A stretch of 64,000 bases of DNA from Escherichia coli (GTDB taxonomy: Bacteria; Pseudomonadota; Gammaproteobacteria; Enterobacterales; Enterobacteriaceae), in NCBI GenBank assembly GCA_025544715.1, contig GCA_025544715.1_4109.2; one strand, 5' to 3'. Positions within the stretch are counted from its first letter, which is position 1; the number at the start of each line of letters is the position of its first letter. The position numbers and the translations under genes are program-made. Below are positions 6,464 to 10,032 of this stretch, one piece after another. A model generated the notes under the pieces. That model searched no databases and had not been told where the DNA came from. It was given only the letters and a program-made list of their open reading frames with translations.

Positions 6464-7003
6464 TTAACGTTCATCATCATGAATCTCACGATGACAATTA
6501 GCACAAACCATAATACATTTATCTAGTTCTATTTTGATTTTTTCAAAAGAACGAGTTGAACCTTCTTGACTAATTGAAAAATCTTTCTGTGAAGGGTCAA
6601 TATGGTGAAATTCTAATGCCGCAATGCATTTATTATAACCACACTTTTCGCAGCAACCACCTTTGTATTCAACAGCTAATATTTTTAATTTTCTACGTCT
6701 ATCCGAAACACGTTGACTGTCACATTTTGAGCATTTCCATTTACCTTGTGAATTTAAATCATAATTCTTATTGTGTATTTCACAAAATCTCATTTCATTC
6801 GTTGACTTTGGTCGTTTAACACCATGTGATTCAATAATGTTATTGATTCTTGATCTATTACACTTATATTCTTTGGCTAAACCGTAAATTGGCATACCAT
6901 TTAAATACTTCTGAATTATTTCATTCTCTGGTAATTTAGAACTTTTCGCCTTTATTGCTTCGGCTATTTTGTTGCGTGTTTCTTCTGATTGTTTTCGTCC
7001 CAT
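6464..7003 (-). mobile_element. HNH homing endonuclease
   Basis: N-terminal EETRNKIAEAIK (NUMOD3-like), helix-turn-helix-like segment, Cys pairs, C-terminal EFHHID...CANCHREIH HNH motif; sits next to a tRNA cluster. Confidence 0.7.
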
Positions 7004-7069
7004 GAACCTTAGACCTCATAATATCCATTATGATATTATTTATTGTTCCAAGGTTCATAGTTAATTTGC

Positions 7070-7152
7070 TGGTAGTACTGGAGTCGAACCAGTCTTGTCA
7101 TTTCTGACACGGATTAACAGTCCGTTGCATAAGGCCGATATGCTAACTACCA
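7070..7152 (-). tRNA. type II tRNA (long variable arm), anticodon read as GTT
   Basis: 7-bp acceptor TGGTAGT/ACTACCA, D-stem GCAT/ATGC, anticodon stem ACGGA/TCCGT with loop CTGTTAA, variable hairpin GTCAGAAATGAC, T-arm ACTGG-TTCGACT-CCAGT; tRNA-Tyr-like body with an Asn anticodon. Confidence 0.55.
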
Positions 7153-7164
7153 TTTGTTTTAAAT

Positions 7165-7244
<80 letters not shown>

Positions 7245-7247
7245 GTA

Positions 7248-7741
<494 letters not shown>

Positions 7742-9696: not shown

Positions 9697-10032
<336 letters not shown>

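Follow-up and report, generated by a model that had tools for sequence, protein, structure and literature searches.

Can a transfer RNA (tRNA) built with a long variable arm decode asparagine codons? The question is raised by a minus-strand gene in a 64,000-nucleotide stretch of DNA from Escherichia coli (NCBI GenBank assembly GCA_025544715.1, contig GCA_025544715.1_4109.2; hereafter the window), in which a variable arm of the kind seen in tyrosine tRNAs is combined with the asparagine (Asn) anticodon GUU. According to textbooks and recent reviews, only tRNA-Leu, -Ser, -Tyr and -Sec have long variable arms. The window has a GC content of 33% and comes from a jumbo coliphage that belongs to the 121Q/PBECO4/E9.1 group; across the tRNA region, its best matches show 91-93% identity. 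A sequence-only reading of the window had described a Tyr-like body and proposed either a Tyr-derived tRNA causing misincorporation or recoding, or an anticodon-mutated pseudo-tRNA. The fold, relatives and identity elements of the gene point to a different answer, namely that it probably encodes a functional Asn decoder with a class II (long variable arm) body, the most likely task of which would be Asn-charged decoding of AAU and AAC.

Structure and identity elements of the long-arm tRNA-Asn

ARAGORN reports a tRNA-Asn(gtt) on the minus strand at positions 7068-7152, and the Rfam tRNA model RF00005 covers positions 7069-7152 over its full length (model positions 1-71) at 47.5 bits (E=4e-8), the gathering score being 29. 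The 84-nucleotide (nt) RNA reads UGGUAGU-UA-GCAU-AUCGGCCUU-AUGC-A-ACGGA-CUGUUAA-UCCGU in its 5' part and, after UCCGU, continues as GUCAGAAAUGACAAG-ACUGG-UUCGACU-CCAGU-ACUACCA-G. The minimum-free-energy structure of the isolated RNA is the cloverleaf, including the GUCA/UGAC hairpin of the variable region, at -28 kcal/mol (z=-3.1), and none of 200 shuffled sequences folded as stably. ARAGORN, Rfam and the fold agree with the sequence-only reading that this is a real tRNA with a 7-base-pair (bp) acceptor stem, a GTCA-GAAA-TGAC variable hairpin and an ACGGA-CTGTTAA-TCCGT anticodon arm. The Asn anticodon on a long variable arm likewise holds, as the ARAGORN run gives GUU and no different triplet at positions 34-36, and the anticodon loop CUGUUAA is indeed one base away from the CUGUAAA of E. 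coli tyrT. Of the extent first given, 7070-7152, the end at 7152 stands, whereas the other end has to be moved to 7069 (Table 1). This shift also corrects the discriminator, which had been taken for a Tyr-like A: A72, with which the acceptor stem ends, lies at position 7070, and the unpaired discriminator is the G at 7069.

The acceptor/T architecture of the molecule is the standard 7/5, its T loop is UUCGACU, its first acceptor pair is U1-A72, and both C11-G24 and G2-C71 occur in the sequence. It does not have the type I architecture, with a variable loop of 4-5 nt, that is usual in bacterial tRNA-Asn. Both determinants of bacterial tRNA-Asn are present, viz., the anticodon G34-U35-U36 and G73. 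According to a review of tRNA identity, the three anticodon bases together with G73 make up Asn identity in bacteria; A73 and U35 are critical for Tyr, for which G1-C72 is a further bacterial element; A73 is crucial for Leu; and the G73 of tRNA-Ser is an antideterminant for the leucyl- and tyrosyl-tRNA synthetases (LeuRS and TyrRS). Serine identity resides in the variable arm and the tertiary shape, is independent of the anticodon and receives a contribution from G73, with G1-C72 and G2-C71 being absolutely conserved in bacteria. Because GUU, G73 and U1-A72 are all found in the window tRNA, it would be, on paper, a substrate of asparaginyl-tRNA synthetase (AsnRS) that is insulated from TyrRS and LeuRS. 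It lacks the marks of bacterial tRNA-Tyr, having neither A73 nor G1-C72 nor GUA, and its arm is not of the Ser type, since it combines 4 bp with a 3-nt linker and stands beside U1-A72 rather than G1-C72, G2-C71 being present.

The same marks recur across the family. Among the matches listed, to which the counts of this paragraph refer, G73 is found in 99 of the 108 long tRNA-Asn genes (92%), and their first pair is U-A in 73 and G-C in 28; the short tRNA-Asn genes of the same loci have G73 in 17/19. The tRNA-Tyr genes of these loci carry A73 in 55/57 and G1-C72 in 52/57, and the tRNA-Ser genes carry G73 in 58/98 and G1-C72 in 87/98. The resemblance of the long tRNA-Asn to tRNA-Tyr holds for the geometry of the arm, which has a stem of 3-4 bp and a 3' linker of 3-4 unpaired nt in both, whereas tRNA-Ser has 5-7 bp with a linker of 0-1 nt and tRNA-Leu a linker of about 1 nt. 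Recognition by seryl-tRNA synthetase (SerRS) is argued against because this geometry is unlike that of tRNA-Ser.

Profile hidden Markov models, built from the tRNAs of these loci with the anticodon masked, scored the family at a mean of 27.9 bits for Tyr (22.4 for the window tRNA) and 26.2 bits for short Asn (21.0), the short-Asn score being favoured by a search pattern that fixes the anticodon arm. The corresponding scores were 21.9 (15.6) for Ser, 18.1 (7.4) for Leu, and at most 15.2 (at most 13.3, without a Thr match) for Lys, Ile, His, Thr and Asp. The Tyr-like body of the sequence-only reading is thus borne out by arm geometry and by the masked-profile score, but not at the acceptor end, where G73 and U1-A72 are Asn marks. 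The long tRNA-Asn genes have an identity of 0.588 to the tRNA-Tyr of their own contig and 0.591 to those of other contigs, which gives no sign of a recent origin from a resident tRNA-Tyr; between contigs, long tRNA-Asn genes have a mutual identity of 0.635 and tRNA-Tyr genes of 0.626. The suggestion of a Tyr-derived copy is further weakened by the retention of a separate tRNA-Tyr(GUA). An old switch from Tyr to Asn identity, or convergence on the one arm geometry to which bacterial translation is already adapted outside Ser and Leu, would both fit.

Selection on the arm and stems

Thirty divergent members of the family were aligned, and pairs were counted on the five-helix structure. Standard pairs occupy 99.2% of the stem positions. 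In shuffles the figure is 70.7%, and sliding the partners by 1-3 columns lowers it to 34-46%. Changes affect both partners in 17 of the 24 pairs. The variable helix is paired in 98.2% and has compensatory changes in all four of its pairs (for example, GUCA/UGAC, GAGC/GCUC, GAUC/GAUC and GUUC/GAAC). In the D stem, three pairs were tested (columns 10-12 with 25-27), and all are paired in 100%, two of them with both-sided changes. Over the whole set, among the matches listed, the best variable-region hairpin has on average 3.5 bp, compared with 2.5 bp for shuffled sequences, and GAAA is the most frequent loop of the arm. These patterns indicate that the Tyr-type variable hairpin is under purifying selection. 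They also speak against a pseudo-tRNA, as the stems are intact and compensatory changes are found in every one of them.

A diverse lineage in phages, viral contigs and tRNA arrays

Escherichia phage WPEC5 has an unannotated copy with 100% identity over the 84 nt, and relatives with about 90% identity, annotated as tRNA-Asn, are present in the Klebsiella jumbo phages Muenster and phiKp_21. The phiKp_21 copy (L013:2008-2091) has a U-C mismatch in its T stem (ACUUG/CCAGU), representing either a sequencing error or a damaged allele. Distant GUU homologues of 81-85 nt are found in the T4-like phages Serratia CHI14, Enterobacter CC31 and PG7, Erwinia FBB1, Klebsiella Shark_ER15 and AmPh_EK29, and Morganella vB_Mm5, as well as in the T5-like Proteus phage Stubb, and all of these are annotated as tRNA-Asn, one of them as 'tRNA-Asx'. 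Phage T5 itself is not a carrier of the long arm, its tRNA-Asn being 78 nt and non-extended. Most of these phages have a separate, ordinary tRNA-Tyr(GUA) alongside the long tRNA-Asn. A scan of IMG/VR for an Asn anticodon arm followed by GGTTCGA at long-arm spacing, with an ARAGORN check, gave at least 120 matches and at least 103-108 distinct long tRNA-Asn(GUU) of 79-94 nt, which are very diverse in the sequences of their acceptor, D, T and variable stems. The long-arm tRNA-Asn is not a one-off mutant but a diverse and probably old lineage carried by phages and mobile tRNA arrays.

The identity of the WPEC5 copy, the at least 100 GUU homologues and the separate Tyr genes rule out that the anticodon arose by a sequencing error, as the sequence-only reading had allowed, or by a one-base mutation from Tyr to Asn. 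An origin from the host is also ruled out, given that a blastn search against 5,426 E. coli genomes gave no match and that resemblance to E. coli asnT is confined to the anticodon and T arms.

When viral sequences were scanned at both the short and the long spacing, long genes accounted for 20 of the 110 ARAGORN-verified matches among those listed (18%), and for 12 of the 43 tRNA-cluster matches within the first 80 listed (28%). A scan of 185,579 bacterial and archaeal species, with one genome each and the long pattern only, returned 30 matches, about 20 of which are real. Many of these cellular genes lie in dense tRNA arrays, including four Micromonospora/Verrucosispora arrays of 23-36 tRNAs, and several contigs of metagenome-assembled genomes hold 7-26 tRNAs; the remaining ones are the sole tRNA within the stretch examined. 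Thus, the long tRNA-Asn looks characteristic of viruses and mobile tRNA arrays. We found no description of a class II tRNA-Asn in full texts on tRNA identity, non-canonical tRNAs, tRNA arrays and phage tRNAs, a scope outside which most subscription journals fall; the class is apparently undescribed, though a prior description is possible.

GenBank records call such genes plain tRNA-Asn, and annotations in general have to be read with caution, as homologues are labelled tRNA-Asn, tRNA-Asx or not at all and a Lys/Asn chimera is labelled tRNA-Lys. This chimera, a 79-nt gene of Citrobacter phage Ursula (PQ589834.1; L012:1985-2063) annotated as tRNA-Lys(TTT), consists of the 5' half of a tRNA-Lys and the 3' half of a long-arm tRNA-Asn, joined within their near-identical anticodon arms. 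Its acceptor strands, GGGAUAC and ACGGCCC, are unable to pair, and it is probably a non-functional product of a deletion between neighbouring Lys and Asn genes.

Long hairpin variable regions were also observed in other viral isotypes, viz., Ile(UAU) in 13/20, Thr(UGU) in 13/70, Cys in 7/57 and Trp in 5/55, and rarely in Lys(UUU), with one of 67 in viral loci. Examples are an 87-nt Trp(cca) (L111), an 84-nt Cys(gca) (L078), an 87-nt Thr(tgt) (L140), an 88-nt Lys(ttt) (L182) and a 95-nt Ile(tat) (L170). These other long-arm isotypes are about twice as common in loci with a long tRNA-Asn (57/1137 versus 11/456). The converse is seen in tRNA-Leu, for which short (type I-like, 74-77 nt) forms make up 64 of the 160 distinct ARAGORN-called genes in viral loci; they are also present in the actinobacterial arrays L184, L185, L189 and L208 (Verrucosispora and Micromonospora chromosomes), together with tRNA-Asn of 89-90 nt. 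In Azoarcus sp. L1K30 (L211:114-200), an 87-nt chromosomal tRNA-Asn is canonical except for an 11-nt tandem duplication in which ATCCGTAGGTC occurs twice. Spanning the variable loop as well as the 3' strand of the anticodon stem, the duplication shows how a long variable region could arise in a single step.

Genomic context and allele exchange

The slot occupied by the long tRNA-Asn differs among otherwise similar phages. In E9.1, tRNA-Met is directly followed by a canonical 73-nt tRNA-Asn (GACUCUG...CAGAGUC-G), a 61-amino-acid (aa) open reading frame (ORF) and then an ORF beginning with MAYFLIQ, and the same short tRNA-Asn lies beside tRNA-Met in A4, vB_Ec-M-J, PBECO4, G17, Sharanji and at least 15 other relatives. 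The long tRNA-Asn and a 179-aa ORF fill this slot in the window and in WPEC5, and the shared MAYFLIQ ORF follows. The comparison indicates that a long allele, together with a putative homing endonuclease, has taken the place of a short one, and we argue from this exchange within one slot that both tRNAs do the same job. The 179-aa ORF has a NUMOD3 motif at its N-terminus (Pfam E=0.0024, short of the gathering score) and an HNH-type motif at its C-terminus (EFHHID...CANCHREIH), and is 76% identical in aa sequence to the annotated HNH endonuclease adjoining the long tRNA-Asn of Muenster.

ARAGORN finds six tRNA genes in the window, all on the minus strand, for Asn(gtt), Met, Ser(gct), Arg(tct), Ser(tga) and Gly(tcc). 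The last of these (tRNA-Gly(UCC), 9938-10010) is the weakest of the cluster, with 41.7 bits, a non-standard pair in the anticodon stem, U as discriminator and no encoded CCA, and it is missing from the Rfam run over the whole window. A candidate sigma-70-type promoter ends 7 nt upstream of tRNA-Ser(GCU) and plausibly drives a Ser-Met-Asn transcript. Asn codons amount to 60.6 per 1000 (6.1%) in the ORFs of the window, with 41.7 for AAU and 18.9 for AAC, a 2.2-fold excess of AAU. This frequency is roughly 1.5 times that of E. coli.

Table 1. Coordinates of the long-arm tRNA-Asn, its structural parts and its neighbours in the window
Feature	Position	Strand	Basis and remarks
Long-arm tRNA-Asn(GUU), 84 nt	7069..7152	-	ARAGORN, Rfam RF00005, cloverleaf fold, direct sequence reading
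Acceptor stem, 7 bp, UGGUAGU/ACUACCA	5' strand 7152-7146, 3' strand 7076-7070	-	Fold
D arm, GCAU-AUCGGCCUU-AUGC	7127..7143	-	Rfam, fold
Anticodon stem, ACGGA/UCCGU	7125-7121 / 7113-7109	-	Fold
Anticodon loop CUGUUAA, anticodon GUU	7114..7120, anticodon 7118-7116	-	ARAGORN, Rfam, fold
Variable region, 15 nt	7094..7108	-	Fold; covariation
Variable hairpin, GUCA/GAAA/UGAC	Stem 7108-7105, loop 7104-7101, stem 7100-7097	-	Fold
Unpaired AAG, 3' of variable hairpin	7096-7094	-	Fold
Discriminator G73	7069	-	Sequence reading; followed by CAA, so CCA not encoded
tRNA-Met(CAU)	7166..7244	-	ARAGORN, Rfam; upstream neighbour of long tRNA-Asn
tRNA-Ser(GCU)	7249..7338	-	ARAGORN, Rfam; first gene of Ser-Met-Asn cluster
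Candidate sigma-70-type promoter, TTGACT-17-TATAAT, TG extension	7345..7373	-	Consensus scan only, 11/12
179-aa ORF, putative homing endonuclease	6464..7003	-	ORF list; directly downstream of long tRNA-Asn

Comparison with known tRNAs

Canonical type I tRNA-Asn(GUU) of bacteria and phages, of which E. coli asnT and the 73-nt gene of E9.1 are examples, shares GUU, G73 and U1-A72 with the window tRNA, and the short tRNA-Asn of close relatives occupies the same genomic slot. The anticodon arm in CGGACUGUUAAUCCGU is identical to that of asnT, and the T arm differs by one loop base. The two differ in the variable region, which is a 5-nt loop (AUGUC) in asnT and a 15-nt region with a 4-bp hairpin here, in the D loop, which is longer (9 nt) in the window tRNA, and in the sequence of the acceptor stem, which is unrelated. 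Bacterial tRNA-Tyr(GUA) resembles the window tRNA in its stem of 3-4 bp, its tetraloop and the 3-4 unpaired nt preceding the T stem, as well as in the anticodon loop with its single difference, but the window tRNA has G73 in place of A73, U1-A72 in place of G1-C72 and U36 in place of A36.

Class II bodies with unusual anticodons have been encountered before. The nematode nev-tRNAs of Hamashima et al. are said to be class II-shaped with anticodons outside Leu, Ser and Tyr. Bacterial allo-tRNAs (Mukai et al. 2017, as outlined in a review) are likewise class II-shaped with an anticodon outside this set. Both thus share with the window tRNA a long variable arm and an anticodon foreign to it, but they retain identity elements for Leu, Ser or Ala and receive an amino acid at odds with their anticodon, whereas the acceptor-end marks of the window tRNA match its Asn anticodon.

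Phage tRNAs, including T5 tRNA-Asn, are known to rescue infection when defence nucleases destroy host tRNAs. Documented cases are the T5 tRNA-Lys, -Thr and -Asn against PARIS AriB, T5 tRNA-Tyr against retron-Eco7 PtuAB and phage tRNA-Lys against PrrC. AriB cuts the Lys(UUU) and Thr(UGU) tRNAs of E. coli, and more weakly its Asn(GUU) tRNA, between positions 40 and 41 (U36AAUC|N41) and contacts U16-U17 of the D loop, and the T5 Lys, Thr and Asn tRNAs jointly neutralise it. The long tRNA-Asn resembles these systems in being a phage copy of a host tRNA that is cleaved by a nuclease, tRNA-Asn(GUU) being a documented AriB target, and in its place within a tRNA cluster that, like the one of T5, is interspersed with HNH genes. 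Escape variants among the counter-defence tRNAs, however, carry point substitutions at or near the cut site in the anticodon stem-loop, while in the window tRNA this part matches the host sequence and the difference lies in an added arm.

Proposed function and alternative explanations

We propose that the long tRNA-Asn would be transcribed together with tRNA-Ser(GCU) and tRNA-Met from the strong sigma-70-like promoter, and that after trimming it would receive its CCA from the host CCA-adding enzyme, since CCA is not encoded. It could then be charged by host AsnRS through G34-U35-U36 and G73, as their conservation suggests, and would decode AAU and AAC, which amount to 6.1% of the codons of this AT-rich phage, so as to supplement the host tRNA-Asn or to substitute for it if depleted. 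Our guess, held with low confidence, is that the arm changes how the molecule is seen by host factors other than AsnRS, such as tRNA-targeting defence nucleases. Several points weigh against the proposal of an Asn decoder. Class II synthetases such as AsnRS approach the tRNA from the side of the variable loop, so that a long arm might hinder charging. A long arm with G73 also belongs to serine identity, the long and short tRNA-Asn occur together on some contigs, which hints at incomplete redundancy, and the CCA that the window tRNA-Asn lacks is encoded in its cluster neighbours.

The most direct challenge to Asn charging is that SerRS, by way of the long arm and G73, or TyrRS, by way of the Tyr-type arm, G34 and U35, charges the molecule and places Ser or Tyr at AAU and AAC, which would amount to deliberate mistranslation or recoding. 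The Tyr-like geometry of the arm, a masked Tyr profile score equal to the Asn score, the presence of C11-G24 and G2-C71, and the arm-based, anticodon-independent nature of serine identity with its contribution from G73 are all compatible with such mischarging. We nevertheless consider it very improbable. The AsnRS determinants GUU and G73 are in place, and G73 is an antideterminant for TyrRS and LeuRS, while A73 is critical for Tyr and the family has G73 in 92%. For SerRS, the arm of 3-4 bp with a linker of 3-4 nt contrasts with the 5-7 bp and 0-1 nt of tRNA-Ser in the same loci, and U1-A72 stands where bacterial tRNA-Ser has its absolutely conserved G1-C72. Moreover, anticodon-independent charging would not require G73 to be kept together with U1-A72, an ordinary tRNA-Asn fills the same slot in close relatives, and with AAY at the frequency given above a systematic substitution would therefore hit nearly every protein. 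The misincorporation or recoding first envisaged for this tRNA is accordingly unlikely. Charging would be unimportant if the molecule were instead a non-translational decoy or competitive inhibitor of a host nuclease or modifier that targets tRNA-Asn, with the arm aiding binding or blocking cleavage. The authors of the AriB study suggest that overexpressed viral tRNAs may inhibit, the window tRNA retains the exact UAAUC|C with the variable arm emerging 3 nt from the site, and some phages have long and short Asn genes together. However, the strict G73, the fully paired acceptor stem and the T loop correspond to the needs of charging and ribosome use, whereas fewer constraints would apply to a decoy; in this phage lineage the long allele has supplanted the short one rather than joining it; and the AriB motif is retained equally in long and short tRNA-Thr(UGU) (UAAUC in 6/13 and 28/57, respectively). 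A decoy role is hence improbable, and the latter counts also give no support to the idea that the arm is an alternative to mutation of the AriB site.

A selfish origin, in which the long tRNA-Asn spreads as a passenger through its linkage to the HNH gene, with an arm that may protect the carrier allele and little benefit to the phage, appears extremely improbable. A module of long tRNA-Asn and HNH gene is indeed common to the window, WPEC5, Muenster and phiKp_21 and replaces the short tRNA-Asn and its small ORF, and an HNH homologue lies within 1 kb of 16 of the 136 long Asn genes. Yet the proximity is 4/74 for short Asn genes (Fisher p=0.15), HNH genes of the same family stand beside many other isotypes, an adjacent HNH gene is missing in most members (CC31, CHI14, Stubb and others), and the covariation shows selection on the tRNA itself. 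The same counts leave the notion of the arm as immunity against the homing endonuclease unsupported.

The preferred reading, of an Asn-charged decoder, can be extended to the arm itself. Viruses and mobile tRNA arrays may maintain the class II tRNA-Asn lineage with the arm as an adaptive shield against tRNA-targeting defences such as AriB, which would leave the AsnRS determinants untouched while sterically blocking nucleases that dock on the anticodon stem and the D loop. The lineage would then constitute about one fifth of viral tRNA-Asn genes and be essentially absent from the core tRNA sets of cells, and viral Thr(UGU), Ile(UAU), Cys and Trp tRNAs may make use of the same kind of shield. 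The spread of long arms over isotypes does not support a link to AriB, as they are found in viral Thr(UGU) but no less in Ile(UAU), Cys and Trp, and scarcely in the AriB target Lys(UUU). As a whole, this extension is possible but doubtful.

Implications

A conserved, covarying and virus-enriched tRNA-Asn family that joins a long arm to Asn marks stands against the restriction of such arms to Leu, Ser, Tyr and Sec. The family would show that a class II tRNA body is acceptable to a class IIb synthetase system, or has been made acceptable to it, and offers a natural test of the roles of the variable arm outside aminoacylation, which could include nuclease evasion, modification or ribosome behaviour. 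The allele swap between otherwise similar jumbo phages provides a ready-made isogenic comparison. The wider result is a virus-enriched lineage of class II tRNA-Asn, accompanied, apparently, by other non-canonical long-arm isotypes. If the arm does act as a shield, the textbook rule of class II tRNAs for Leu, Ser, Tyr and Sec only would be broken, and phages would have a structural route of evasion besides point mutation.

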